Shown in pieces: positions 3,962-25,712 of a stretch of 64,000 bases of DNA; positions within the stretch are counted from its first letter, which is position 1; every line of letters begins with the position of its first letter. The position numbers and the translations under genes are program-made. Under the pieces are notes generated by a model, which made no database searches, was not told the DNA's origin, and saw only the letters and a program-made list of their open reading frames with translations. The stretch is taken from positions 1-64,000 of the IMG/VR virus record IMGVR_UViG_3300032242_000488; one strand, written 5' to 3'. This DNA is from a virus.

Positions 3962-4158
3962 AGTACAACGTGTGAAGATACCAGTAACGAGGACTGGGCC
4001 CTGCACGTAAAACATGGGGCGAACGGGCGGCCTACCGGATGGATTATCCTTGTGTGGATAAAAAAATGGTAGCGTATTAAAGCATTCTCAGGCCTTCGGG
4101 CAAGTGGGTTCATCCATGAAGAGTGCTTTAATACACACATTCTAAAGAGTGTGTTAAT

Positions 4159-4328: not shown

Positions 4329-4386
4329 TAGGATACTAACAGCAAATCTTAATCAACTTTCAAATGGTGAAAAAGAATGTATCCTG
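4329..4386 (+). ncRNA. ACAGCAA-scaffold RNA copy 1 (Glu-UUC loop)
   Basis: TAGGATAC/GTATCCTG stem, ACAGCAA, internal ATCAA-CTTTCAA-ATGGT. Confidence 0.75.
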
Positions 4387-4395
4387 TTTAATTAT

Positions 4396-4470
4396 ACTCC
4401 GGTCGTCTAGTGGCTAGGACGCCAGCCTTTCAAGTTGGAGAAGCGGGATCGAAACCCGTTCGGAGTACCA
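4396..4470 (+). tRNA. tRNA-Glu(TTC)
   Basis: Cloverleaf, loop CTTTCAA, variant T-loop ATCGAAA, CCA. Confidence 0.9.
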
Positions 4471-4474
4471 ATAT

Positions 4475-4549
4475 GCCGTTGTAGCTCTCTGGGAGGGTAA
4501 CTGATTGTCTATCAGATTTAGGCGAGTTCGATTCTCGTCAGCGGCGCCA
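4475..4549 (+). tRNA. tRNA-Asp(GTC), divergent
   Basis: Cloverleaf, loop TTGTCTA (pyrimidine at 37), CCA. Confidence 0.8.
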
Positions 4550-4555
4550 ATCTAT

Positions 4556-4634
4556 TCCGTGAAATCCAAGCATGGTGCAAGGACCTGACTGTTAATCAGT
4601 GATTAGGTGAGTTCGATCCTCACACACGGAGCCA
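4556..4634 (+). tRNA. tRNA-Asn(GTT), divergent
   Basis: Loop CTGTTAA, T arm, GCCA end. Confidence 0.8.
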
Positions 4635-4643
4635 ATACAATTT

Positions 4644-4718
4644 GGGGGCAGTAGCGGGCTACGGTTCTCCCTTGCAAGGAGGATGTCTAGAAGGGTTCAA
4701 CTCCCTCGGTCTCCACCA
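4644..4718 (+). tRNA. tRNA-Ala(TGC), divergent with reduced D loop
   Basis: G3:U70 pair, loop CTTGCAA, CCA. Confidence 0.75.
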
Positions 4719-4724
4719 AATTAT

Positions 4725-4800
4725 CTCGCATTCGGTTAGCGGCTATGCCACCTGGTTTGGGGCCAGGAGTTCGAAGGTTCGAGTCCTTCATGCGAGACCA
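4725..4800 (+). tRNA. tRNA-Pro(TGG)
   Basis: Cloverleaf, loop TTTGGGG, CCA. Confidence 0.85.
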
Positions 4801-4806
4801 AGTTAA

Positions 4807-4880
4807 GCCCTATTAGTTAAATGGTAGAACACCTGTTTTGTAATCAGGGGATGGCAGTTCGATTCTGTCATGGGGCACCA
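4807..4880 (+). tRNA. tRNA-Thr(TGT)
   Basis: Cloverleaf, loop TTTGTAA, CCA. Confidence 0.88.
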
Positions 4881-4883
4881 GTT

Positions 4884-4944
4884 TAGGATAGTAACAGCAA
4901 ATTAAAAAATCTTTTCTTGAAAAAAAGCCAAAAATGCTATCCTG
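4884..4944 (+). ncRNA. ACAGCAA-scaffold RNA copy 2 (Ser-UGA loop)
   Basis: TAGGATAGTA/TGCTATCCTG stem, ACAGCAA, internal CTTTT-CTTGAAA-AAAAG. Confidence 0.78.
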
Positions 4945-4973
4945 TTTTATTTTAATGTTCAAAGGAGAACGAC

Positions 4974-4994
4974 ATGAAACGTGCTAAACGTTAG
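4974..4994 (+). CDS. minigene MKRAKR
   Basis: AAAGGAG RBS at 4961-4967, ATG AAA CGT GCT AAA CGT TAG, followed by a strong hairpin. Confidence 0.4.
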   Translation: MKRAKR

Positions 4995-5056
4995 TGTCAT
5001 CCTAGACCCCCGTATGGTCCTGGATGGCACGTAAAAGAAAATCAATTACGAATCAT

Positions 5057-5132
5057 CCACAGCTGGCGTTAACGGTAGCGTACTCGGCTCTTAACCGATG
5101 AGGTGTCAGTTCAAATCTGACGCTGTGGACCA
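5057..5132 (+). tRNA. tRNA-Lys(CTT)
   Basis: Cloverleaf, loop CTCTTAA, CCA. Confidence 0.9.
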
Positions 5133-5135
5133 TAT

Positions 5136-5210
5136 GGGGGTATAACTTAACGGCTAAAGTAGTAGGCTTTTAACCTATTAATCAGAGTTCGATTCTCTGT
5201 GCCCCTACCA
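5136..5210 (+). tRNA. tRNA-Lys(TTT)
   Basis: Cloverleaf, loop CTTTTAA, CCA. Confidence 0.9.
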
Positions 5211-5296
5211 TATGAAAACATATTCGATACGGACATAGTCTGTGTGAGGCAAGATCACCTTCCTTTGACGAGAACGATCCGAGTGTGTTTCCATAT

Positions 5297-5371
5297 GGTA
5301 ATGTAGGACAATGGTAGTCTTCCTCCTTCATACGGAGAGTGTTACTGGTTCAAATCCAGTCATTACCACCA
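5297..5371 (+). tRNA. tRNA-Met/Ile2(CAT)
   Basis: Cloverleaf, loop TTCATAC, CCA; Met versus lysidine-Ile identity not resolved. Confidence 0.8.
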
Positions 5372-5376
5372 ATCAT

Positions 5377-5450
5377 GTATCCCTAGTGTAATGGCAGCAT
5401 TACAGTCTCCAAAACTGTCGGTCGGGGTTCGAGTCCCTGGGGGTACGCCA
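5377..5450 (+). tRNA. tRNA-Trp(CCA)
   Basis: Cloverleaf, loop CTCCAAA, GCCA. Confidence 0.9.
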
Positions 5451-5454
5451 TTTT

Positions 5455-5518
5455 AAGGATGTTAACAGCAAAAATTTATACATTGAACTTTTAATTCAAA
5501 CCGTAAAAATACATCCTG
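5455..5518 (+). ncRNA. ACAGCAA-scaffold RNA copy 3 (Lys-UUU loop)
   Basis: AGGATGT/ACATCCT stem, ACAGCAA, internal TTGAA-CTTTTAA-TTCAA. Confidence 0.78.
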
Positions 5519-5527
5519 TTTTTTTGT

Positions 5528-5601
5528 TCCCGGATAGTGTAGTGGTAACACAACAGACTTTGACTCTGCTATTGTAAGTTCGATTCTTACTCCGGGTGCC
5601 A
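5528..5601 (+). tRNA. tRNA-Gln(TTG)
   Basis: Cloverleaf, loop CTTTGAC, GCCA. Confidence 0.9.
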
Positions 5602-5607
5602 CATAAT

Positions 5608-5684
5608 CGGTCCTTAACTCAGCGGATTAGAGTGTCAGTCTTCGAAACTGAAGGTCGGGAGTTCGAATCTCTCAGGGCCGGCCA
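5608..5684 (+). tRNA. tRNA-Arg(TCG)
   Basis: Cloverleaf, loop CTTCGAA, CCA. Confidence 0.9.
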
Positions 5685-5690
5685 AAATTT

Positions 5691-5765
5691 ATCGCCATAG
5701 TATAATGAATAATACACTACGCTACGAACGTGGGAATAGAGGTTTGATTCCTTTTGGCGGTACCA
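5691..5765 (+). tRNA. tRNA-Arg(ACG)
   Basis: Cloverleaf, loop CTACGAA, T-loop TTTGATT, CCA. Confidence 0.85.
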
Positions 5766-5910
5766 ATGTTGTATCTAACACAAAGTCTGTGTTAATTTTT
5801 TGATATGTAGGTGTAAATGTTTTAACAGTGGTCCAGCAAGCGGGCGATTTATATTTGGTATCGGCCAACTGATCATATAAATTTTTTACAGCTTCTTCAA
5901 CAGTTATCAT
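5722..5910 (-). CDS. small hypothetical protein antisense to tRNA array
   Basis: TATAAATA late-type motif at 5916-5923 on minus strand; 3' end overlaps tRNA-Arg(ACG). Confidence 0.45.
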   Translation of the reverse strand: MITVEEAVKNLYDQLADTKYKSPACWTTVKTFTPTYQKINTDFVLDTTLVPPKGIKPLFPRS

Positions 5911-5922
5911 AATATTATTTAT

Positions 5923-5997
5923 AGTTCCTTAGCGTAGTGGTAGCGCAACACCTTGACATGGTGTGGGTCACTGGTTCGATCCCAGTAGGAACTACCA
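5923..5997 (+). tRNA. tRNA-Val(GAC)
   Basis: Cloverleaf, loop TTGACAT, CCA. Confidence 0.9.
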
Positions 5998-6010
5998 AGA
6001 CTTATTAGGT

Positions 6011-6081
6011 GTGGCCATAGTGTAATGGTAGCACTACATGTTGTGACCTTGTCAGTACGGGTTCAAATCCCGTTGGTCACC
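6011..6081 (+). tRNA. tRNA-His(GTG)
   Basis: Cloverleaf, loop TTGTGAC, C73; CCA not encoded; flanked by inverted repeat ACTTATTAGG/CCTAATAAGT. Confidence 0.82.
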
Positions 6082-6096
6082 CCTAATAAGTTTTTT

Positions 6097-6172
6097 GCCG
6101 CTTTAGCTGATGTGGTCATAGCACCGGTTTGAAGCACCGAGGAACCAGGTTCGATCCCTGGGGGCGGCACCA
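6097..6172 (+). tRNA. tRNA-Phe(GAA)
   Basis: Cloverleaf, loop TTGAAGC, CCA. Confidence 0.88.
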
Positions 6173-6212
6173 AGTTTTGTAGTAATGCAAATTTAAAAAC
6201 TTAAATATATGC

Positions 6213-6890
6213 ATGACTTTATATTTTCCTCAAGCAGATGCTACGTATGTACACATACCCAAAACCGGCGGAACAATGATGCGGGTTTGGGGGGAATTTA
6301 ATATTCCCGATAAAATGACAGAAGGTGTTTGTTTTAGATATCCAGGTACCACCGTTAATCGTCACTGGCAGTTAAACAAAATTAAAGAAGTTTGGCCAGA
6401 CCCTGGAACAGTTTTTACTTTTGTAAGAAATCCCTATGATAGATTAGTTAGCCAATTCCATTGGGTAGGCCAAGCCGCAAAGAAACGACTAAAAGAAAAA
6501 TATGATTACCATTTTGAAAAATCAATTAAATGGGATATTTTAGAATCAAAAAGCTACGACAAAGGATTTGATAGATATGTCAGGGCACTATACAACAAAG
6601 AGTATCACGAAATATGGTTTGACAAATGGCGCTACGAAAACGGATGGACAAGGGCCGATACTCAACTAAGTTGGTTGATCGGTGGTAAGGCCGATATAGT
6701 TATAAAACTAGAAGAAATTGATTCTAAGTTTTATATCATACAGGATCTGCTAGGTTGTAAAGAACCATTCCTAACGGCGCTTAATGCTAGCGAACACGAT
6801 CACTATTCTACATACTATACTGCGGAGACTAAAAAAATGGTCTCTGAAATGTTTAAAGAAGATCTAGATACATTTAATTACGATTTCTAG
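6213..6890 (+). CDS. sulfotransferase family protein
   Basis: HIPKTGGT (5'-PSB) and VRNPYDRLVS (3'-PB) PAPS-binding motifs. Confidence 0.85.
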   Translation: MTLYFPQADATYVHIPKTGGTMMRVWGEFNIPDKMTEGVCFRYPGTTVNRHWQLNKIKEVWPDPGTVFTFVRNPYDRLVSQFHWVGQAAKKRLKEKYDYHFEKSIKWDILESKSYDKGFDRYVRALYNKEYHEIWFDKWRYENGWTRADTQLSWLIGGKADIVIKLEEIDSKFYIIQDLLGCKEPFLTALNASEHDHYSTYYTAETKKMVSEMFKEDLDTFNYDF

Positions 6891-6898
6891 TATATAAT

Positions 6899-6975
6899 GC
6901 CCCTGTACGCTAATTGGTAGTGCGGGTAGACTTAAAATCTGCTGGATGGCGGTTCGAATCTGCCTAGGGGTACCA
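6899..6975 (+). tRNA. tRNA-Leu(TAA), short variable arm
   Basis: Loop CTTAAAA, variable region TGGAT, CCA. Confidence 0.85.
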
Positions 6976-6977
6976 GT

Positions 6978-8474
6978 TTATAAACTTAACTTTTTTTGTA
7001 TGTAGTTAGGGATATATTTTTCTGGAAAGTTCCTTTGGTATTGATGTGTCCCATTAAGTTTTAATTTTTCTTGGGTAGACAATGGCATACCATTATTATC
7101 ACATATTATGCCTATAAGTCCATTTCCATTTCCCTGTCCACCAAGTTTGTGCAGATTGTATTTTCCAACTTTTAGTAATAGAGTACAATCATTAGCAATA
7201 GCATCGGCTTCGTATATATTCATGTTATCATTTTCCCAAATGACTCCATCTGATGTGCCGACATTACATTTTTTTAACGGATCGGTGTTAGTGATATCAT
7301 CCATAATTCGATAACCGTATTTTGTAAAGTTTTTAGACAGTTCTGAGCCTCGAGGATCATCTGGATCTTGTATATAAAGAGCGTTCATCATCCATGAATG
7401 GTGGCTCCAATTAGCTTTGATCCACTTTGAAGTTTCTGCTAATGATTCTTTTGTCTCATAAGGTAATCCTGCAATAAGAGATATTTGAGGACGATATTCA
7501 AAACCTGCATGTTTTATAAAATAATTAGATACATCTATTAGGCCTTCTTTCATTTTAGAAACATCCATGCCCTTGCCAATGGCTTTGGCAGACTCTTGAT
7601 TGAAGGTTTCGATGCCATGGAAGTGTGCTAGGACTCTCATCCTTAATAATTCTTCTCTATCCTTAGGACGACTTATTAATAGATCGGCTCTAATATATGC
7701 CCAAAAATAAGGATCGTAGGGCAATGTTTCTACCATGTCTGCAAACTTTGTAACTTTTTCTGTGCTATCATTAAACGTGTCGTCAACGATAGCATAATCC
7801 TTCATTCCAAAGTGTTCATAATTGTATAGTAGCTGTTCTTTAATGCTATCTGCATTAGAGGTATAATCGCCTCTTACACCAAGAATAGGATAGTTGCAAA
7901 ATTTACAAGCAAATTTACAACCTCTGCTCATTTCAACTGTGCCAAATTCGTTCGGTAAAATAAAATCTCTATTTTGAAATTTTACAATAGGGCTTCGAAA
8001 TGGGTACGACTCATGAGCGTGTAGAGCATTGATAATTTTAGTATGACTGTTAACTACAGAAAGATCAAACTTAGGCCTGGTGCCGTTACTGAATAGATAT
8101 TTTAATAATACATCTAACGCATTTTCGCCGTAGCCTGCTATATGATAATCAACAAGTGGGTTATTACTAATTGGAGCTTGCCCGCCAGTTATCGTAACAA
8201 TGTGAGGCCATTTAATTTTAACATACGCAAGGATGACATTCATTGTATCTATAGCAGATGATCTATTAAATAAAAGTGAGATCCCGATAAATTTAGTGTT
8301 TGATGTTATTCTTGAATCAATAAGACTATAGAGTTGTTCGTTCGTAAAATACACAGTAAAATCGACTACTTCTACATCCCAAGATTGTTCTCTTAAATGT
8401 GATGCAATTCTGTGGGAACCTGCGCTTCTTTCTTTAAGACCGGCACAAACTGAAAAGATGATTGCATGATTCAT
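6978..8474 (-). CDS. radical SAM protein, B12-binding-like N-terminus
   Basis: CKFACKFC motif, DDTFN, GIETFN, LIAGLPYET; start moved to MNHAII after TATAAATA at 8479-8486. Confidence 0.85.
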   Translation of the reverse strand: MNHAIIFSVCAGLKERSAGSHRIASHLREQSWDVEVVDFTVYFTNEQLYSLIDSRITSNTKFIGISLLFNRSSAIDTMNVILAYVKIKWPHIVTITGGQAPISNNPLVDYHIAGYGENALDVLLKYLFSNGTRPKFDLSVVNSHTKIINALHAHESYPFRSPIVKFQNRDFILPNEFGTVEMSRGCKFACKFCNYPILGVRGDYTSNADSIKEQLLYNYEHFGMKDYAIVDDTFNDSTEKVTKFADMVETLPYDPYFWAYIRADLLISRPKDREELLRMRVLAHFHGIETFNQESAKAIGKGMDVSKMKEGLIDVSNYFIKHAGFEYRPQISLIAGLPYETKESLAETSKWIKANWSHHSWMMNALYIQDPDDPRGSELSKNFTKYGYRIMDDITNTDPLKKCNVGTSDGVIWENDNMNIYEADAIANDCTLLLKVGKYNLHKLGGQGNGNGLIGIICDNNGMPLSTQEKLKLNGTHQYQRNFPEKYIPNYIQKKLSL

Positions 8475-8541
8475 ACTATATTTATAGTTAAGAGTTGACC
8501 CTAAAAAATTTAAGTACACTAAGATAATAGAAATAAATATA

Positions 8542-9495
8542 ATGTTACCAATAAGGCCTAACATGAAAAAGAAACTCTGCTTAGTATATCAACTGTTTAC
8601 AAAGTGCAATATAGGTTGCAAGTACTGTTATAATTATTTTGATCAGGATGTACTTCCCTTCAATTATTATACATCCAAAGTTGGTAAACTTTTAGAATTA
8701 TACCATGATGAAACTTGTTTTGTTTTGAATGGCGGTGAGCCCTTGTTGCTTAAAGGATTTCAACATCTAGTAAATCAAGCGACTGAAAAAGCAAAAACAT
8801 ATACCTATACTAATGGTACTCTAAGTACATTGCACTATAAGAGATTTATTGATAGTCTTGAGCACAAAGACAAATTTTATATGACAATCAGTTTACACTG
8901 TATGGAAGTGCTAAGAGATAATAAATTACCTGAGAAGTACTTTAAAAATATTGAAGTTTTTGCTAAGAATATTCCCAACTTAAAAATCAACCTAGTAGTT
9001 GATGAAGAGTTTCAAGGTGAATACTTACAGGTAATTAGACAAACTATGAGAGAAATTAAACAAAAAACTTCTCTCAAATATGTTAATATTCTAATCGCTG
9101 ATCATATGTATGAAGATGAATTTAAACTATTGCGTTTGTTAAATCAAGATTTTATTGACTTTGTTGAAGAAATTGATAGCAATTTTACTTATAAAAATTG
9201 CATGTGGGACAATACTAGACAGTCATTAACAGAAATGATCAAAGACATAAAAGAAAATATCGTGTTAAAGTTAGCCGGAAAGGATTTCAAAATTCCATAT
9301 GAATATGAATTTGGACAAATATTTTTCTTAGAAAGTCCCGAAGGAATGATTATTCAGGAATTTTTAGGTGACGGACGTCAAGAACATAAAATACCGTTTG
9401 ATCAATTTGACGCATTTGTTGAAGATATCAAACCAAAAGTACAAAGCAAGCCTCTTAGAAAAATTACAACATTATCGTCTGTTGGAATAATCTAA
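8542..9495 (+). CDS. radical SAM protein
   Basis: CNIGCKYC, GGEPLL, TNG motifs; true start may be 8563. Confidence 0.85.
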   Translation: MLPIRPNMKKKLCLVYQLFTKCNIGCKYCYNYFDQDVLPFNYYTSKVGKLLELYHDETCFVLNGGEPLLLKGFQHLVNQATEKAKTYTYTNGTLSTLHYKRFIDSLEHKDKFYMTISLHCMEVLRDNKLPEKYFKNIEVFAKNIPNLKINLVVDEEFQGEYLQVIRQTMREIKQKTSLKYVNILIADHMYEDEFKLLRLLNQDFIDFVEEIDSNFTYKNCMWDNTRQSLTEMIKDIKENIVLKLAGKDFKIPYEYEFGQIFFLESPEGMIIQEFLGDGRQEHKIPFDQFDAFVEDIKPKVQSKPLRKITTLSSVGII

Positions 9496-9657
9496 TCACA
9501 AGTTGTTGATAAAGCGAAGTGCTTTGTTGACATTAGTAAAGTATCGCACAGTTAGTTCTATATCGTAGATATCACGAACCATAACGATACACACTCCCTC
9601 ATACAATGATAGATGAAAGTGCAATCCTGCAGGGGTAACGCTTTCGTATGTCTTCAT
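9496..9657 (-). CDS. small hypothetical protein (53 aa, not in ORF track)
   Basis: MKTYESVTPAGLHFHLSLYEGVCIVMVRDIYDIELTVRYFTNVNKALRFINNL; TAAATA upstream on minus strand. Confidence 0.5.
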   Translation of the reverse strand: MKTYESVTPAGLHFHLSLYEGVCIVMVRDIYDIELTVRYFTNVNKALRFINNL

Positions 9658-9667
9658 ATTAATATTT

Positions 9668-9742
9668 ACCGCTTTCGTTCAATGGACAGGACATGATTCT
9701 TCTAAATTCATAATAGTGGTTCGATTCCACTAGGCGGTGCCA
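9668..9742 (+). tRNA. tRNA-Arg(TCT)
   Basis: Loop CTTCTAA, A20, GCCA. Confidence 0.85.
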
Positions 9743-9746
9743 ATAT

Positions 9747-9820
9747 GCTCTTATAGTTTAATGGTAGAACACTCGCTTGGTATGCGAGCAATGGTAGTTC
9801 GATTCTACCTTGGAGCACCA
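9747..9820 (+). tRNA. tRNA-Thr(GGT)
   Basis: Loop TTGGTAT, CCA. Confidence 0.9.
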
Positions 9821-9821
9821 T

Positions 9822-9899
9822 GCCCCCTTAGCCCAATTGGTATGAGGCGTCTCTCTCAAAAGGAGAATCGTGTCGGTTCGAGTCCGACAGGGGGTACCA
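9822..9899 (+). tRNA. tRNA-Leu(CAA), short variable arm
   Basis: Loop CTCAAAA, variable region ATCGT, CCA. Confidence 0.85.
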
Positions 9900-9920
9900 A
9901 TATAATAAGTAAATGACAAT

Positions 9921-10010
9921 GGAAATGTGGCAGAGTCCGGTTTATTGCAACAGTCTTGAAAACTGTCGATCAGAAATGGTCCGTGAGTTCGAATCTCACC
10001 GTTTCCGCCA
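9921..10010 (+). tRNA. tRNA-Ser(TGA)
   Basis: Class II cloverleaf, loop CTTGAAA, GCCA. Confidence 0.93.
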
Positions 10011-10027
10011 ATAATCAAAAAAATATG

Positions 10028-10056
10028 TTGACAATGTCACAAAGTGATGTTATAAT
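10028..10056 (+). promoter_or_regulatory. sigma70 promoter
   Basis: TTGACA-N17-TATAAT. Confidence 0.85.
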
Positions 10057-10081
10057 ACATACATGTTAAGAAATTAACATA

Positions 10082-10093
10082 CGTTCTTTAAAA
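10082..10093 (+). promoter_or_regulatory. boxA-like antitermination site
   Basis: CGTTCTTTAAAA resembles rrn boxA TGCTCTTTAACA; lies in the leader of the tRNA operon. Confidence 0.55.
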
Positions 10094-10115
10094 ATTAATT
10101 ACAAGTAAAACTTGT

Positions 10116-10200
10116 GGACAGGTGGGTGAGTGGTTAATACCAGCAGACTGTAAATCTGCCCTCTTAGAGTACGATGGTTCGAATCCGTCCCTGTCCACCA
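10116..10200 (+). tRNA. tRNA-Tyr(GTA)
   Basis: Canonical class II, loop CTGTAAA, CCA. Confidence 0.93.
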
Positions 10201-10234
10201 TATTAAAGCATATTCTGCGAGTGTGTTTTAATAT

Positions 10235-10324
10235 GGAGCGGTGGCCGAACGGTAAGGCAGCGGATTGCTAATCCGTAGACTCATGAAAGTGGGTCACTGG
10301 GTTCGACTCCCAGTCGCTCCGCCA
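10235..10324 (+). tRNA. tRNA-Ser(GCT)
   Basis: Class II, loop TTGCTAA, GCCA. Confidence 0.93.
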
Positions 10325-10329
10325 TATTT

Positions 10330-10406
10330 GGAGTAGTAGCGCAGTTGGTTAGCGCACTGGCCTGTCACGCCGGGGGTCGCGGGTTCGAGTCCCGTCTACT
10401 CCGCCA
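10330..10406 (+). tRNA. tRNA-Asp(GTC)
   Basis: Canonical, loop CTGTCAC, GCCA. Confidence 0.95.
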
Positions 10407-10423
10407 GATATAGCAGACGGTAG

Positions 10424-10452
10424 TTGACAGCTACTAAATATTCTGCTATAAT
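10424..10452 (+). promoter_or_regulatory. sigma70 promoter
   Basis: TTGACA-N17-TATAAT. Confidence 0.8.
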
Positions 10453-10460
10453 AGTTATTT

Positions 10461-10535
10461 GCCGGATTAGCTCAGTGGTAGAGCAACCGCCTTGTAAGCG
10501 GTAGGTCGTCAGTTCAATCCCGACATCCGGCACCA
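10461..10535 (+). tRNA. tRNA-Thr(TGT)
   Basis: Canonical, loop CTTGTAA, CCA. Confidence 0.93.
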
Positions 10536-10544
10536 AAAGTTTTT

Positions 10545-10628
10545 GCCCTGGTGGTGGAATGGTAGACACGATGGTCTTAGAAGCCATTGTCGAAAGGCGT
10601 GGGAGTTCGAGTCTCCCCTGGGGCACCA
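10545..10628 (+). tRNA. tRNA-Leu(TAG)
   Basis: Class II, loop CTTAGAA, CCA. Confidence 0.93.
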
Positions 10629-10635
10629 TTTAGTT

Positions 10636-10709
10636 GCGGGATTAGTTTAATGGTAAAACAGCAGATTTCCAATCTTCGGTCAAGAGTTCGATTCTCTTAT
10701 CCCGCTCCA
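10636..10709 (+). tRNA. tRNA-Gly(TCC)
   Basis: Loop TTTCCAA, TCCA. Confidence 0.92.
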
Positions 10710-10733
10710 TAGTTTAATAACGTAAAGGTATAT

Positions 10734-10964
10734 ATGAGTAAACCAATCGGTCTTAGTCGCGGTCCAGAAATTGACACAGATTTATGTGTTGCTAACATTG
10801 GCAATAGATACAATCTTGTACTAGTAGCCGCACATCGCGCAAAGGAAATCAAGCGTCAACATAAAGACAGTGACAAGCGTGAACATGTTCACAGCAACAT
10901 CACAGCGTTACTTGAAATCCAAGCAGGCAAGGTTGGTGTTGACTATCTGAAGAGAATTAAATAA
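10734..10964 (+). CDS. rpoZ: RNA polymerase omega subunit homolog
   Basis: NRYNLVLVAAHRAKEI and ALLEIQAGKV match the omega consensus (NRFDLVLVAARRARQ...ALREIEEG). Confidence 0.8.
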   Translation: MSKPIGLSRGPEIDTDLCVANIGNRYNLVLVAAHRAKEIKRQHKDSDKREHVHSNITALLEIQAGKVGVDYLKRIK

Positions 10965-10967
10965 TTT

Positions 10968-11044
<77 letters not shown>

Positions 11045-11050
11045 ATATTT

Positions 11051-11125
11051 GCCTGGTTAGCTCAGGGGTAGAGCAACGCCTTTACACGGCGAAGGTCCGC
11101 GGTTCGAAACCGTGACCAGGTACCA
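11051..11125 (+). tRNA. tRNA-Val(TAC)
   Basis: Loop TTTACAC, CCA. Confidence 0.92.
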
Positions 11126-11143
11126 AATAACAAAAAGGAAAAT

Positions 11144-11374
11144 ATGTTAAAACCAAATAAGACGTTTAGGTTAAGTAAGACAGCAAAACGTATGATAGCA
11201 TTGATGAAAGGTTCTACAGCAGAACAACGTAATCAATACAAACGTATGATGATTCAGGCAGAGTTAGCGGCGGCTATTGTAGTCAAGCCAACTAAGACTG
11301 ATCGTAATGCGCCCCGTGGAACAGCTACTGGTACTACCGGTAGTCATGCTTACACAACACCAAGCGCAGAATAA
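11144..11374 (+). CDS. basic hypothetical protein
   Basis: AAGGA RBS; fills the gap between two tRNAs. Confidence 0.6.
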   Translation: MLKPNKTFRLSKTAKRMIALMKGSTAEQRNQYKRMMIQAELAAAIVVKPTKTDRNAPRGTATGTTGSHAYTTPSAE

Positions 11375-11381
11375 GATTTAT

Positions 11382-11457
11382 TCCCCAATAGCTCAGTCGG
11401 TAGAGTAGCAGACTGTTAATCTGTTGGTCCGTGGTTCGAGCCCACGTTGGGGAGCCA
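11382..11457 (+). tRNA. tRNA-Asn(GTT)
   Basis: Canonical, loop CTGTTAA, GCCA. Confidence 0.95.
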
Positions 11458-11465
11458 GATAATTT

Positions 11466-11541
11466 GGGGGTTTAGCTCAGTTGGGAGAGCGTTTGCTTTG
11501 CAAGCAAAATGTCGCAGGTTCGATCCCTGTAACCTCCACCA
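11466..11541 (+). tRNA. tRNA-Ala(TGC)
   Basis: Canonical, G3:U70, loop TTTGCAA. Confidence 0.95.
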
Positions 11542-11548
11542 AATATAT

Positions 11549-11624
11549 GCGGGAGTAGCTCAGTTGGTAGAGCATTACCTTGCCAAGGTAAATGTCGCGA
11601 GTTCGAACCTCGTCTCCCGCTCCA
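11549..11624 (+). tRNA. tRNA-Gly(GCC)
   Basis: Canonical, loop TTGCCAA, TCCA. Confidence 0.95.
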
Positions 11625-11630
11625 GAATAT

Positions 11631-11705
11631 GGAGCCATCGTCTATCGGTTAGGACATCAGGTTTTCATCCTGAGAAGAGGGGTTCGACTCCCCTTGGCTC
11701 TTCCA
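11631..11705 (+). tRNA. tRNA-Glu(TTC)
   Basis: Loop TTTTCAT, CCA. Confidence 0.9.
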
Positions 11706-11849
11706 GTTTTGTTTATGTGTGTACGGTTACCCATATGTGAGTAGCGAGTCGCCCAAGACACTTGTTACTGTACCTGATGCCCGTAGCAGACTTACGTCGA
11801 GTAAGTTCAGCAAGTAGCTTGGACACTACAAGCGATAAACAAATTCATT

Positions 11850-11941
11850 GCCAGCGAGACTTGACAGTCAGAGAGGTTTTATAAACCTTTTAGCGCCAGA
11901 TTAGCGTTCTTGAGAGGGTTTGATTCCCTCCGCTGGTACCA
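11850..11941 (+). tRNA. non-canonical tRNA with TAT anticodon (Ile-like)
   Basis: 7-bp acceptor, tiny D arm GACT-TGAC-AGTC, loop TTTATAA, long variable arm, T-loop TTTGATT, CCA. Confidence 0.6.
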
Positions 11942-11945
11942 GTTT

Positions 11946-12058
11946 TAGGATAGATGACAGCAAACCCTAGCGGCTAATACCCGCATCCAAAGGACCGGGG
12001 GAACCCAGTCGAGCATGTTCGCTAATCATGTAGAAAAAATCGGCAAAAGCCTATCCTG
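11946..12058 (+). ncRNA. ACAGCAA-scaffold RNA copy 4
   Basis: TAGGATAG/CTATCCTG stem, ACAGCAA, three internal hairpins. Confidence 0.72.
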
Positions 12059-12502
12059 TTAAAACCCCGTCTACACTTCTACGTTAAGGAAGTGCGTAAT
12101 TACAGTGACGATAACTGTACGGTGCATTGGATCTACCGCAAGGCCCATTTAAGGCGACTTGAAAAATCACAAAGGCGGGGACGTTTCCCGTCTAGATGGA
12201 AAAAGAACGTGGACAGAGTAACCGCTCAGTTTAGGGCTCATGTGGTGTGAGTAGCTAGACACTTTATTAAAGCAAACTAGAATCTGTAAAAAGATCAGGT
12301 TTGGTATCCCAGAAGCTCTTTGACATAGTCATAACTTTTAATACACCTTAGTTTGTTTTAATAAAGTAATTTTATACGTGCTCTTTGAGTAGCTACAGTG
12401 GAACACCGAAATACCGGTCAATGTCGACCATGTACCGGGACCGGCCATGAAGAGAGGGGCTACCGCGAATTCAAGCGTCACAGAGAGCACCTATAAAGTT
12501 AT

Positions 12503-12578
12503 CGCGGGGAGGGTCCGGTCACCAGCGTGGTCTCATAAGCCATTGCCATCCTTGGTTCAAATCCAAGCCCCGCAACCA
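12503..12578 (+). tRNA. initiator-like tRNA-fMet(CAT), divergent
   Basis: CGCGGGG acceptor with C1:A72 mismatch, loop CTCATAA, CCA. Confidence 0.8.
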
Positions 12579-12831
12579 TTTTTATCAGTAAGGAACTTAG
12601 GGTATCGGGAGTCCGTAATGGGAAGCATAAAAGGTCGGAAGCCTTTAATGTTTGATGATTATAAATCATACTCCAGCCGGGTGGTAGATCAGGACATACA
12701 GTCCGGGCGATCTTCAAAAGCAGTTGATACTCCATGTTTGCTAGACCAGTAGAGCGCGACTGTATGCCGCGGGTAGCCAAGTCTGACTTTCGTCGACCAA
12801 AACTCTCCAAGTTCCTTTCTAATAAAAATAT

Positions 12832-12909
12832 GCAACGGTGGCAGAGTGGCCCAATGCAACGGATTGCAAATCCGTAAAACCGTCAGTTCAAATCTGACCC
12901 GTTGCTCCA
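12832..12909 (+). tRNA. tRNA-Cys(GCA)
   Basis: Loop TTGCAAA, U73, CCA. Confidence 0.92.
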
Positions 12910-12970
12910 TTTAAAGCTGATTTTAACAAAAAAAGATAAGTACGTATATAACACACGGAGTAGCGAAATC

Positions 12971-13405
12971 ATGATTAAATTCATTAGGGATCTTTCTAAT
13001 AGTCTTTTAGAATATATTAAAGATGATCCGGTCCGACCGAATCTATCAGTTGACTTTAGAGTTAGTGACGGCCGAATGGTTATTGCCTTAATGGATGAAG
13101 AAACGCCTGCCGCAATGGTATGTGTTAGCCTACATGACTTTATTCCGGCGAGTGTAGAAGAACTTGCTACTACAGCAATGGAACCCACTACAGCTATATT
13201 CTATACTATTTGGAGTTATAGAGCTGGTAGTGGTAGAGATCTGTTATTCAAATCAGTAGAAGCTCTTAAGAAAGATTATCCAACACTCAACCGTTTTGTT
13301 ACACTAAGTCCAAAGACTGAAATGGCAAAGAAATTCCATCACAAAAACGGTGCTCAAACATTCCGTGAAAACGAAGATACCATTAACTATGAGTATCATA
13401 TCTAA
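12971..13405 (+). CDS. hypothetical protein, GNAT/malonyl-CoA decarboxylase-like fold
   Basis: TAIFYTIWS and FVTLSP motifs resemble the MCD C-terminal domain; start moved out of tRNA-Cys. Confidence 0.5.
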   Translation: MIKFIRDLSNSLLEYIKDDPVRPNLSVDFRVSDGRMVIALMDEETPAAMVCVSLHDFIPASVEELATTAMEPTTAIFYTIWSYRAGSGRDLLFKSVEALKKDYPTLNRFVTLSPKTEMAKKFHHKNGAQTFRENEDTINYEYHI

Positions 13406-13414
13406 ACTTCGGAC

Positions 13415-13443
13415 TTGACCTTTTGCATTAAAGAACGTATAAT
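13415..13443 (+). promoter_or_regulatory. sigma70 promoter
   Basis: TTGACC-N17-TATAAT. Confidence 0.7.
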
Positions 13444-13449
13444 AAGTAC

Positions 13450-13550
13450 GTGGTCGTAAGCAAATAGGCAAAGCTCCAATCCAGAAATGGTGAGGGACGG
13501 GACTAGGCTATTAGCCGTCTTTGTAGGTTCAAGCCCTACCGACCACACCA
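13450..13550 (+). tRNA. tRNA-like RNA (Leu-like, degenerate anticodon arm)
   Basis: Perfect acceptor GTGGTCG/CGACCAC, Leu-type D loop, T arm, CCA; 101 nt. Confidence 0.5.
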
Positions 13551-13567
13551 AATATAAAGGAAGCCGT

Positions 13568-13711
13568 ATGTCAAAACCAGACGAAGTATTGCAAAAAGCA
13601 TACGGCAGTATGCCAAAAGAAGTTGGCTACTCTATAGATTGGGATTTTATCCCCACCTGGAGAGGCGTCAAATATTACTGGTATATTCTGGTAAGAAAAC
13701 TCACACGATAA
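13568..13711 (+). CDS. small hypothetical protein
   Basis: AAAGGA RBS, MSKPDEVLQK... Confidence 0.5.
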   Translation: MSKPDEVLQKAYGSMPKEVGYSIDWDFIPTWRGVKYYWYILVRKLTR

Positions 13712-13712
13712 A

Positions 13713-13787
13713 CTCCCGGTAGTTCAATGGATAGAACCACTCTCTCCTAAAGAGTAAATGTGGGTTCGATTCCCGCCCAGGAGACCA
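13713..13787 (+). tRNA. tRNA-Arg(CCT)
   Basis: Loop CTCCTAA, CCA. Confidence 0.9.
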
Positions 13788-13819
13788 AAATTTATTTTGT
13801 ACAGGTTGTCCAAAATAGA

Positions 13820-13848
13820 TAGACACATAACAGTAAAGACGTTATAAT
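13820..13848 (+). promoter_or_regulatory. sigma70 promoter for ncRNA-DUF2828 operon
   Basis: TAGACA-N17-TATAAT. Confidence 0.7.
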
Positions 13849-13880
13849 AGACACATAGCAAGGAAACTTGTAAAGAGTTT

Positions 13881-14046
13881 TAGGATCGGTACAGCAATTC
13901 ATACATACTATGGAATGTTAGACACTGTGGTAGTTGGTGGAGCAGAGTGCGTAAAAACACCGAGCGTTGAAGTCAACTATTGAAACAAGACTAACGAGCA
14001 CAGAGTGATGGCCTGTGTAAAATAAAAGCAGTCAACAACGATCCTG
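13881..14046 (+). ncRNA. ACAGCAA-scaffold RNA copy 5
   Basis: TAGGATCG/CGATCCTG stem, ACAGCAA, multi-hairpin insert. Confidence 0.75.
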
Positions 14047-14053
14047 TTAGTCA

Positions 14054-14284
14054 TAGGATGACTACAGCAATTAAAATACTCTGAACTAACTGCTATAGAA
14101 GGTGGTCGCAGGACAGGCAGAAATGCTTTCTAGAAATAGACACCGAAGGAATAGATAGACTGGCAAAGCACCAGGTATGATTTACATACAGAAAAACATG
14201 TAATAGACAACATGAGTTGTTGTTAGGGTCTGGGTGCCATGATTGACCAGACCAGAAAATAAACAAATTGGCACGATCATCCTG
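14054..14284 (+). ncRNA. ACAGCAA-scaffold RNA copy 6
   Basis: TAGGATGA/TCATCCTG stem, ACAGCAA, insert with GAAA-capped hairpins and GGTCTGG/CCAGACC stem. Confidence 0.75.
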
Positions 14285-14294
14285 TTTAAAGTTT

Positions 14295-14351
14295 TAGAAT
14301 GTTAACAGCAACTTTAATTTTTCACGCATATCGAAAAGAAAATACATTCTG
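14295..14351 (+). ncRNA. ACAGCAA-scaffold RNA copy 7
   Basis: TAGAATGT/ACATTCTG stem (compensatory G-C to A-T change), ACAGCAA, internal TTTTC/GAAAA hairpin. Confidence 0.72.
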
Positions 14352-14365
14352 TAAAGGTAATTAAA

Positions 14366-15778
14366 ATGAACGCATTTGTAAACGCAGTAGCGAACCAAGA
14401 AGCCCGTACCGCAAACGGTATGAAGGCTCGTAAGTCAACAGCCAAGAAGACTGTTGATCTTTTCTATAACATCGGTGCAAGCCGTGGCAAGAACATTGTT
14501 CCTGCTTTCACAGCGGCTTATGTCGAAAACCAAGACGTAGCACTACGCATCGCACAATGGGCACGTGATGTCCGTGGTGGTGCAGGTGAACGTCAACTTT
14601 TCCGTGACATTCTTGTTCACTTGGAAAAGACTGACCCAGACGCCGCTTTAGCTTTGCTTCGCAAGGTTCCAGAAGTTGGTCGTTGGGATGACATCTTTGT
14701 CTTCACCAACCCTGACCTAAAGTCAGCCGCTTACACTATGCTTGGCGATGCCTTGCGTGAACGTAACGGCCTGGCTGCAAAGTGGACTCCTCGTAAGGGT
14801 CAAATTGCCGCTGAAGTTCGTGCCTTCTTTGGCATGACTCCAAAGCAATACCGTAAGAGCCTTGTGGCTCTTACAAAGGTTGTTGAAACCCAAATGTGTG
14901 CAGGAGATTGGGATAACATCAACTTCAGTCACGTTCCTTCTGTAGCGGCTCGCCAATACAAGAAGGCATTCAACCGTCACACACCTGCATTTGCAGAGTA
15001 TGTTGCCAAGTTGGTAAGTGGTGATAAGACTGTTAAGGTTAACGCCAACGCAATCTTCCCACATGATGTGTTGAAGGGAGTGATCGGTAGCTACCGTGCA
15101 AGTTTGGACAAGACAGAAACTGACCATGTGATCGCACAATGGGACAGCTTGCCAAACTACGTAGGCGATGCTAGCATCATGCCAATCGTAGACGTTAGCG
15201 GTTCTATGTCTTGCCCAGCAGGAAAGAACACTGGCGTAACTTGCATGGACGTTTCAGTCAGCTTGGGCTTGTACCTAGCAGACAAGAACAAGGGCGTGTT
15301 CAAGGACACATTCTTGACTTTCTCTAGCAAGCCAGAACTTGTTACTCTAAAGGGTAACATTGTTCAAAAGGTTGCCCAAATGTCTAGTAGCAACTGGGAT
15401 ATGAGCACTAACTTGCATGCCGCTATGGACAAGATCCTAAGCGTTGCAGTTAAGGGTTCAGTACCAGCAAGCGACATGCCAGCCATGTTGCTGATCTTGT
15501 CAGACATGCAGTTTGACCAATGTGCTCGTTACGACGACACAGCAATGCAGATGATCGAACGCAAGTTCGAAACAGCTGGATATGCTGTGCCACAAATTGT
15601 TTTCTGGAACCTAAACAGTTCAGACAACGTGCCTGTTAAGGCAGACAAGAGTGGTGCGGCACTGGTAAGTGGATTCAGTCCATCAATCATGACTAGCTTG
15701 CTAGCCGCTGATTTGGATCAGTTCACTCCAGAAGGTATCATGTTGAAGACTGTAATGAGTGATCGTTACGCTCTTTGA
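14366..15778 (+). CDS. DUF2828-family TROVE/Ro60-like protein with C-terminal vWA domain
   Basis: RDVRGGAGER, GRWDD, LAAKWTPR, VPSVA helical region; vWA MIDAS DVSGS, SDMQFD, VFWNL, VSGFS. Confidence 0.8.
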   Translation: MNAFVNAVANQEARTANGMKARKSTAKKTVDLFYNIGASRGKNIVPAFTAAYVENQDVALRIAQWARDVRGGAGERQLFRDILVHLEKTDPDAALALLRKVPEVGRWDDIFVFTNPDLKSAAYTMLGDALRERNGLAAKWTPRKGQIAAEVRAFFGMTPKQYRKSLVALTKVVETQMCAGDWDNINFSHVPSVAARQYKKAFNRHTPAFAEYVAKLVSGDKTVKVNANAIFPHDVLKGVIGSYRASLDKTETDHVIAQWDSLPNYVGDASIMPIVDVSGSMSCPAGKNTGVTCMDVSVSLGLYLADKNKGVFKDTFLTFSSKPELVTLKGNIVQKVAQMSSSNWDMSTNLHAAMDKILSVAVKGSVPASDMPAMLLILSDMQFDQCARYDDTAMQMIERKFETAGYAVPQIVFWNLNSSDNVPVKADKSGAALVSGFSPSIMTSLLAADLDQFTPEGIMLKTVMSDRYAL

Positions 15779-25014: not shown

Positions 25015-25712
25015 TGTCTAGCCTAAAAGAAATGCCTTTTGCAGTGGTAGAGGCATTGAGTTTTGCCTGTTGTATCTATAGAGAAAAAGGCTATACCAGT
25101 GCGAGCAGTTATACAGCAGGAGATCAGCAGACTTATACTAATAAGGACATGCTGACCTTTGAACTCATGCCACAGCTTGCCGGAAGCACATATCTACTAA
25201 AGTTTACACCTACAGTAGAAGACATTGATCAAGCGTTGGCCATTATCAAACACTTCCGCAAGTTGAGTTTTGGTGTTATTGGTGATACACTCAATGACTA
25301 CATGGGCAGAGTATTCAGTGTTACTCAAAATGAAAACATCACAATGAAAGACTTTGGAGTGCTGGCCAGCGTTCCACAAGTGTATGATCGTGAAATAAAC
25401 GAGAAACAGGTCAAGGCCGCAATCAAAGACACAGTAAAAGCCTACTTGGGACAAGAGGGTGATACGATTGTACTCAATATCCGATACATACAGAGCAAAC
25501 CTGTTCCACAGATTGGCTGTTTTAGTCATACTGCTATTACTGATGGCAACTATTTGGTAAGTTTTTTGAGCAAAGAACTACTAGGCATTGCTGGTTCTAG
25601 TCAACAAATACGAGCCAAAGTCAAAAAACATTCAGTAAACTTTACCTCCAAAACGCCCGAAACACAGTTAAATTATGTCAAAGTACTTGACAGAGAGTTT
25701 GTTTGGCAGTAA
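25014..25712 (+). CDS. hypothetical protein, possible C-terminal OB fold
   Basis: Coupled ORF; AKVKKH...ETQLNYVK ending. Confidence 0.6.
   Translation: MSSLKEMPFAVVEALSFACCIYREKGYTSASSYTAGDQQTYTNKDMLTFELMPQLAGSTYLLKFTPTVEDIDQALAIIKHFRKLSFGVIGDTLNDYMGRVFSVTQNENITMKDFGVLASVPQVYDREINEKQVKAAIKDTVKAYLGQEGDTIVLNIRYIQSKPVPQIGCFSHTAITDGNYLVSFLSKELLGIAGSSQQIRAKVKKHSVNFTSKTPETQLNYVKVLDREFVWQ

Follow-up and report, generated by a model that had tools for sequence, protein, structure and literature searches.

The window analysed here, that is, the whole stretch of DNA under study, is the first 64 kb of the 167.5-kb IMG/VR virus record IMGVR_UViG_3300032242_000488, which is judged to be 46% complete; its close relatives come from freshwater metagenomes and reach sizes of up to ~350 kb, and the source is therefore considered to be a jumbo phage. 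The window features an array of 37 transfer RNA (tRNA) genes, all on the + strand (4251−13787), followed by a + strand gene for a Ro60-fold protein (14366−15778) that carries the Pfam domains DUF2828 and DUF7788. Seven elements share a common terminal "handle" in this region; four (handle RNAs 1−4) are embedded within the tRNA array, and three (RNAs 5−7) stand in tandem ahead of the protein gene. These elements are probably genes for small non-coding RNAs built on one handle, and would make up an undescribed relative of the Ro60/Y-RNA particle.

The handle consists of a closing helix of 7−8 base pairs (bp), the motif ACAGCAA, which sits 2−3 nucleotides (nt) past the 5′ strand, and an A-rich tract ahead of the 3′ strand; the cargo enclosed by the helix is ~30−200 nt long and differs between copies. 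The pattern A[GA][GA]AT, 3−7 nt, ACAGCAA matches seven sites on the + strand of the window (4330, 4885, 5456, 11947, 13882, 14055, and 14296) and none on the − strand; at 7/7 of these sites the 7-nt 5′ arm has its exact Watson-Crick reverse complement 45−225 nt downstream, followed by G, and the chance of such a 3′ partner is ~0.7% per site by our own estimate. A stricter 16-nt pattern gives five forward and no reverse matches in the whole 167.5-kb record, none of them outside the elements, and the reversed control of this pattern has no match in the record. ACAGCAA alone occurs 35 times in the window, where 14.7 occurrences are expected (a 2.4-fold excess); a generic search for any stem of at least 7 bp beside ACAGCAA is too permissive, as such a stem also stands beside 36% of permuted 7-mers, and was left unused.

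The inner 2−3 bp of the closing helix vary among copies with pairing kept, and the outer five pairs are constant save in RNA 7, where one G-C pair is replaced by A-U through changes on both sides. ACAGCAA is present in 7/7 copies and is unpaired in the predicted folds; a terminal end-pairing stem beside a large internal loop, a feature of Y RNAs and YrlA, is likewise present in 7/7, with the flanking segments unpaired in the predicted folds. A first-pass annotation of this DNA had described seven elements with a covarying closing stem and an invariant, unpaired motif, and all seven are confirmed at their positions on the + strand with both properties. Its fuller pattern (AGGAT...ACAGCAA...ATCCTG and a T run) holds in its two halves, with some corrections: RNA 3 has A rather than T ahead of AGGAT, the spacer before the motif is 2−3 nt when a 7-bp arm is counted, and the 3′ end, CUGU in 7/7 elements, continues into a T run of only 1−7 that makes no terminator.

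RNAs 1−4 begin 3−5 nt after the CCA of tRNA-Ile, -Thr, -Trp, and -Ile, respectively; RNAs 1 and 3 occupy the entire spacer, with the next tRNA 8−10 nt downstream. Handle RNA 1 (4329−4386, +) is 58 nt long, with the 5′ strand at 4329−4336, ACAGCAA at 4339−4345, and the 3′ strand with its G at 4379−4386; it fills the spacer between tRNA-Ile and tRNA-Glu, its cargo is a weak 4-bp hairpin, and it scores 63.2 bits with R1, a covariance model built solely from short elements of this clade and of other metagenomic contigs. Handle RNA 2 (4884−4944, +; 61 nt; R1 65.2 bits) lies 3 nt past tRNA-Thr, and by eye its cargo forms a 5-bp stem with a 7-nt anticodon-like loop, CUUGAAA. Handle RNA 3 (5455−5518, +; 64 nt; R1 58.8 bits) lies between tRNA-Trp and tRNA-Gln and has a cargo that resembles the anticodon arm of tRNA-Lys(UUU), with a 5-bp stem and the 7-nt loop CUUUUAA. 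Handle RNA 4 (11946−12058, +; 113 nt; R1 24.2 bits, E 0.009) starts 4 nt past a 92-nt tRNA-Ile(tat); its cargo contains several hairpins with no match to a known family. Outside the window, two weak handle-like candidates (110530−110593 and 117522−117578) have a 7-bp end stem followed by G, with ACAGCAA or GCAGCAA past the 5′ strand; R1 misses both at E ≤ 1.

The tandem trio, which the first-pass annotation had correctly placed before a gene it called TROVE-like, is made up of handle RNA 5 (13881−14046, +; 166 nt), handle RNA 6 (14054−14284, +; 231 nt), and handle RNA 7 (14295−14351, +; 57 nt; R1 71.4 bits). The cargos of RNAs 4−6 are 85−200 nt long, are conserved among relatives, and have no match in Rfam; that of RNA 5 is kept in 33 distinct orthologues (mean identity 0.75) and that of RNA 6 in 22 (mean identity 0.72). 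RNA 7, the cargo of which is a small hairpin as in RNA 1, lies in the 5′ leader of the Ro60-like gene and ends 14 nt before the ATG at 14366; the ribosome-binding site begins 2−3 nt after its helix, and both this arrangement and the A-U pair are the same in all relatives listed, which suggests feedback control. A sigma-70-like promoter match (13820−13848, +; 11/12 positions, a match to the consensus only) is found ~33 nt upstream of RNA 5, with no terminator-like site between it and the 14366 gene; RNAs 5−7 are thus probably in the leader of the gene, and as far as can be read from the sequence this promoter could drive RNAs 5−7 and the gene as a single transcript.

The 10-kb flanks of 80 related loci, in which the DUF2828 protein is 86−95% identical, contain 228 complete elements on the strand of the gene and none on the other. 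The 216 distinct sequences pooled from all loci also share two further traits: G is strongly depleted past ACAGCAA, and an A-rich tract leads up to the 3′ strand. A set of 62 distinct short members keeps every one of the seven core helix pairs throughout, four of them with changes on both sides, and pairing falls to 34−53% when the 3′ partner is slid by 1−3 columns; this set was chosen for pairing and is not independent, so these figures are a description rather than a test. The independent test of the helix is provided by the phages of hosts from other phyla discussed below, in which the helix sequence is entirely different and still pairs. The seven elements are almost certainly genuine structured RNA modules.

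The protein encoded at 14366−15778 is 470 amino acids long and contains a HEAT-repeat ring and a vWA domain in which the MIDAS (metal ion-dependent adhesion site) is intact. Pfam matches DUF7788 (E 7e-50) and DUF2828 (E 8e-26) in this open reading frame (ORF) and gives no match to TROVE. An AlphaFold2 model that draws on 69 homologues found among 1.84 billion representatives has a predicted local distance difference test (pLDDT) score of 91.7 and a predicted template modeling (pTM) score of 0.90; in a Foldseek comparison of this model with the PDB, all 12 matches listed at E ≤ 0.001, of 13 counted, are to Ro60/TROVE, with template modeling (TM) scores of 0.36−0.64. These matches include Xenopus and human Ro60, Rsr from Deinococcus, and the Ro60 of Thermus phage phiLo; isolated vWA domains rank after them. 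The MIDAS residues D276, S278, S280, T348, and D380 are invariant in 70 homologues. A phmmer search of the PDB with the DUF2828 protein gives no match to Ro60, and in a profile search Ro60 comes up no better than E 0.035, with a match that spans ~50 residues in the vWA part; with a Ro60 fold and marginal sequence similarity, the protein is therefore considered a Ro60-fold protein of a separate sequence family. The family is widespread: of 50,697 phage records, 706 contain a homologue by tblastn, and the cluster representatives that match the protein at E ≤ 0.001 number 6,232; a protein atlas search returned only DUF2828 phage clusters and was uninformative on amoebae.

Handle and gene occur together across distant phages. 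R1 detects the handle in 8/8 phages that carry a DUF2828 gene, from hosts of five phyla, vs. 0/6 tRNA-rich phages without the gene. Ralstonia phage RSP15 has four handle RNAs in its tRNA array; FelixO1 also has four, in the tRNA array just downstream of its DUF2828 gene; Listeria phage LP-125 features three in tandem immediately upstream of the gene, as in the window; mycobacteriophage Snenia has three immediately downstream of the gene, with AG following the 3′ strand; and Synechococcus phage BUCT-ZZ01 has two immediately upstream, one of them with GCAGCAA. The helix sequences of these five phages are unrelated and ACAGCAA persists; TCAGCAA replaces it in RSP15, KVP40, and Aeh1, and G follows the 3′ strand in most phages. 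As a control, nine tRNA-rich phages were named before their gene content was looked up: KVP40, Aeh1, and GAP32 have both a DUF2828 gene and R1 matches at E < 0.01, and T4, T5, Bxz1, S-PM2, LP65, and rV5 have neither the gene nor, with R1, the handle.

In GAP32 the ~ten handle RNAs are located in a tRNA-bearing region ~200 kb from the gene; the association therefore does not depend on close linkage. Bxz1, which has both a canonical Ro60 and YrlA (Chen et al. 2014, PMC4201824), is without the handle, and thus the handle belongs specifically to the DUF2828 branch. When IMG/VR contigs are picked by a complete RNA element alone, 27/34 encode a DUF2828 protein (45−90% identity); the gene is present in 3/3 complete genomes among them (235, 350, and 524 kb), and the seven contigs without it are fragments of 7−28 kb. 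A functional tie between the handle RNAs and the Ro60-like gene is considered very likely. The first-pass annotation had proposed a modular Y-RNA-like family and a covariance-model check of its co-occurrence with DUF2828; the proposal is supported by this co-occurrence, by the Ro60 fold of the protein, and by the permuted tRNA-like cargo of FelixO1 and Snenia described next.

Some cargos resemble parts of tRNAs. A hairpin of at least 4 bp closing a 7-nt loop is present in 54 of 94 distinct short members, vs. 17 expected from shuffles, and an anticodon-like loop (pyrimidine, U, three bases, purine, any base) on a stem of at least 4 bp in 38, vs. 1.2 expected from shuffles; these members are mutually related, with orthologues counted repeatedly, and are not independent. 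In FelixO1, Snenia, and some close relatives, one cargo has a T arm and then a D arm, which makes it a YrlA-like permuted tRNA body; the Snenia cargo matches the Rfam YrlA model with 39.3 bits (E 2e-5), below the cut-off of 69. The permuted tRNA body common to these phages and YrlA ties the family to Y RNA biology.

It is hypothesized that the handle is the docking site for the 14366−15778 protein, as the terminal stem of a Y RNA is for Ro60, with the inner part of each RNA displayed as cargo; direct binding of the handle to the Ro60-fold protein in the manner of a Y RNA is likely. RNAs 1−4 would be co-transcribed with the tRNAs and freed by tRNA end-processing, and RNAs 5−7 would form part of the leader on the mRNA that encodes the protein, downstream of the sigma-70-like promoter. 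Since RNA 7 abuts the ribosome-binding site, it could let the protein repress its own translation. The particle may hold tRNA-like baits or decoys in a phage-host fight over tRNAs, or may steer RNA-end enzymes to their targets. The genes that follow the Ro60-like gene downstream on the same strand (15833−20296) encode a PP-loop (QueC-like) ATPase, a DSP-type phosphatase, a metallophosphoesterase, an AAA_33 kinase, a DUF3307 protein, and a Rv2179c-like 3′-5′ exoribonuclease; this set would fit a module for RNA-end processing or repair.

Several points weigh against this Y-RNA-like reading. The fold energies of the elements are no better than those of shuffles (z −0.16 to −1.8), and the case therefore rests on comparative data. 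The conserved feature of the handle is the unpaired ACAGCAA rather than a bulged Ro60-binding helix or a CGAA motif, and no cargo resembling a tRNA body (T arm and D arm) is recognisable among the seven in the window, from a record that is 46% complete. Shared ancestry of many of the positive genomes may inflate the co-occurrence counts, and the handle's real partner could be some other gene that accompanies DUF2828. There is weak evidence of expression in favour of the reading: parts of the stretch are found in sixteen freshwater metatranscriptome runs, and in four runs from four studies RNA-library contigs lie on RNAs 1, 4, 5, 6, and 7, one spanning RNA 4 and one bridging RNAs 6 and 7; they speak for presence only, as the contigs belong to relatives at 90−99% identity, show neither ends, strand, nor level, and may reflect DNA carry-over. 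Stretches without contig cover (6426−9372 and 16109−16500) are uninformative. The literature also offers points in favour. In multi-omics work on Listeria phage CKA15, non-coding transcripts of very high abundance were reported from the 2 kb upstream of an Rsr-like gene; the Rsr-like protein was found in virions, and the RNAs were suggested as possible Y RNAs (PMC12282133). The sole abundant region with coordinates in the text of that study (26,236−26,727) maps by homology, in our reckoning, to the ROOL RNA, and the CKA15 handle array is at 25,256−25,577; the study therefore does not yet show the handle RNAs as abundant species.

LP-125 also has a ROOL match of 87.4 bits, just short of the cut-off of 99.1, from which the handle array lies ~600 nt and the DUF2828 gene ~1 kb downstream; this match (1471−2022 of the examined stretch) corresponds by position to the most highly transcribed non-coding region of CKA15. 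In the FelixO1-type phage Bas63, a knockout screen showed that the Ro60-like gp130, encoded directly upstream of the tRNAs, counters the Ppl defence, and the authors guessed that some of the "tRNAs" there might be Y RNAs (PMC11482910); gp130 matches FelixO1 in position and description, and is presumably a DUF2828 protein. Both the CKA15 and the Bas63 papers guessed at "Y RNAs" near such genes, and neither defined the handle family; literature searches on DUF2828, on ACAGCAA in phage, and on Class I RNA in bacteriophage found no description of it.

The position of RNAs 1−4, which lie 3−5 nt past a tRNA CCA and fill spacers, and the like placement of handle RNAs in RSP15, FelixO1, KVP40, Aeh1, and GAP32, would suit punctuation or stability hairpins of tRNA operons that general RNases would read, with no protein partner of their own. 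This is considered improbable, however, as the unpaired 7-mer does not change between phages whose hosts (Gram-negative, Gram-positive, actinobacterial, and cyanobacterial) differ in their RNase sets, the six tRNA-rich phages without DUF2828 have no handle, and RNAs 5−7 together with the arrays of LP-125, Snenia, and BUCT-ZZ01 flank the protein gene and not tRNAs. It is also quite unlikely that the handle is bound by some other host or phage factor that co-occurs with DUF2828, or serves solely as a cis operator of the DUF2828 mRNA. Co-occurrence cannot separate DUF2828 from genes linked to it, RNA-end enzymes follow the gene, and RNA 7 stands in the leader beside the ribosome-binding site; however, RtcB was looked for as the only candidate companion and is missing from the 167.5-kb record (46% complete), and the lack of the handle in Bxz1, with its canonical Ro60 and YrlA, ties the handle to the DUF2828 branch. 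RNAs 1−4 lie 2−10 kb upstream of the gene and the GAP32 copies 200 kb away, and the role is therefore not purely cis.

The elements could also be regarded as features of the DNA itself, namely miniature transposons, promoter/terminator units, or retron-like templates, on account of their inverted-repeat ends, the short T runs past the 3′ arm, and AT-rich interiors with loose −35/−10-like words (by eye). Against this, the arms covary, the elements occur on one strand only, the conserved motif is on one side, no promoter or terminator is found inside the short elements, and tRNAs follow 8−10 nt downstream of RNAs 1 and 3; an explanation at the level of DNA is already largely refuted and is regarded as very improbable. 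The particular forms it could take fare as follows. By eye, the 3′ arm had resembled a −10 box with a −35-like word 17 nt upstream; a promoter scan found none in the short copies, the arm covaries with its partner, and the promoter reading was rejected. No terminator-like site is present at the 3′ end of any element on the + strand (one − strand match lies inside RNA 6), and T runs of only 1−7, with tRNAs following, do not make an intrinsic terminator. A retron-like template was rejected, as no reverse transcriptase is found in the 167.5-kb record; so was a miniature inverted-repeat transposable element (MITE), for which constant inverted repeats on both strands would be expected, as the arms covary and the seven copies here and 228 in relatives are all on one strand.

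The tRNA array and its surroundings contain further features. A 98-nt tRNA-like sequence (13450−13547) scores 31 bits in a permissive scan only and lies just behind a strong sigma-70-like promoter (13415−13443). An 85-nt sequence at 4158−4242 matches the tRNA-Sec model weakly, as does the 92-nt "tRNA-Ile(tat)" at 11850−11941. Two long gaps between tRNA genes (12062−12502 and 12579−12831) have no Rfam match and contain only ORFs of ~50−100 amino acids; they may hold further RNAs, and RNA-library contigs cover 12084−12200 inside the former. Before and within the array (1467−9495) are genes unusual for a phage, encoding a P450, a sulfotransferase, a B12-binding radical SAM enzyme (− strand), and a second radical SAM enzyme.

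No RNA partner of a DUF2828 protein has so far been defined, and these proteins are common in phages; the handle provides a precise, searchable feature for a covariance model, for binding mutants, and for a catalogue of cargos. The cargos point to a phage-host conflict over tRNAs, and one homologue is reported to counter a defence system; the handle family may also explain some of the unannotated spacers in phage tRNA arrays.

Among known RNAs, species 1 and 2 of T4 (rnaC/rnaD) and RNA I, RNA III, and RNA1 of T5 are similar in being small non-tRNA RNAs that are co-transcribed with tRNA arrays and presumably released by tRNA processing. These phages, however, have no DUF2828 gene, and with the handle model T5 gives no match and T4 a best match of E 0.78; their stable RNAs are not members of the family. 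The annotated stable RNAs with no assigned function in T5 (stretch 285−645) and T4 (stretch 909−1001) also have no handle-model match.

A closer likeness is found in the Class I RNAs of dictyostelid social amoebae, which are ~60 nt long and end in CUGU, with an unpaired motif of 11 nt and a stem that shows compensatory changes (Kjellin et al. 2021, PMC7919456). They are reported to be absent outside Dictyostelia, have their own upstream promoter element, DUSE, and have as their sole known binder Rnp1A, a protein with an RNA recognition motif (RRM) (PMC7919456). The Class I consensus in Rfam (RF01414) opens with a G-started 6-bp stem and CUUACAGCAA, runs through an A-rich tract into the 3′ strand, and closes with CUG; RNA 1 reads CUAACAGCAA where the consensus reads CUUACAGCAA, and aligns with the model end to end (model positions 1−56), keeping ACAGCAA and the final CUG. 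RNAs 1, 2, 3, and 7 fit the Class I form of ~60 nt, with an end stem of ~6 bp and an unpaired motif after the 5′ strand, and the likeness extends to the variable middle, the covariation of the stem, the A-rich tract, the CUG(U) end, and the position of the motif right after the 5′ strand. The three best matches of RF01414 in the 167.5-kb record are elements 1, 2, and 7; their scores (22.8 bits for RNA 1, the best, then 20.7 and 17.3) are far below the gathering score of 41.5, and the elements are therefore not assigned to this class. Unlike the eukaryotic DUSE genes, the elements of the window are in phage tRNA operons or behind a sigma-70-like promoter. That phage handle RNAs and Dictyostelium Class I RNAs are one RNA family, read by the same kind of protein, is a doubtful though conceivable proposal; the likeness is close enough to suggest where the partner of the Class I RNAs may be sought. 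If it were true, Class I RNAs would also exist beyond the social amoebae, with a partner and function approachable through the DUF2828 family; the particle in phages would display look-alikes of anticodon arms and tRNA bodies, as decoys or baits, to counter tRNA-attacking enzymes of the host.

The RNAs known to associate with Ro60 (Rsr) include the Y RNAs of animals, Yrn1 of Deinococcus, and YrlA and YrlB of bacteria and mycobacteriophages. The Rfam comparison proposed in the first-pass annotation returns no family for any of the seven elements, and the Y RNA (RF00019) and YrlA (RF02553) models match none of them even at E ≤ 5−10. The phage protein belongs to DUF2828/DUF7788, with marginal similarity to Ro60 in sequence (E 0.035); some cargos in the window are bare look-alikes of anticodon arms, many copies are inside tRNA arrays, and Bxz1, which has a true Ro60 and YrlA, is without the handle. 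As they part from the Ro60/Y RNA system in protein family, conserved RNA feature, and Rfam model alike, the elements are not filed as Y RNA or YrlA. In phage, a Ro60 with the RNAs Yrl1 and Yrl2 is found in Thermus phage phiLo (PMC12135203). The points of likeness are that the protein combines a HEAT-repeat ring with a vWA domain, several small RNAs are encoded beside its gene on the same strand, the end-pairing stem bears the conserved feature and the remainder varies, and some cargos mimic parts of tRNAs, with a permuted tRNA body in FelixO1 and Snenia; the Ro60/Y RNA particle is the nearest known system to the handle RNAs and their Ro60-fold protein, and has the same design.

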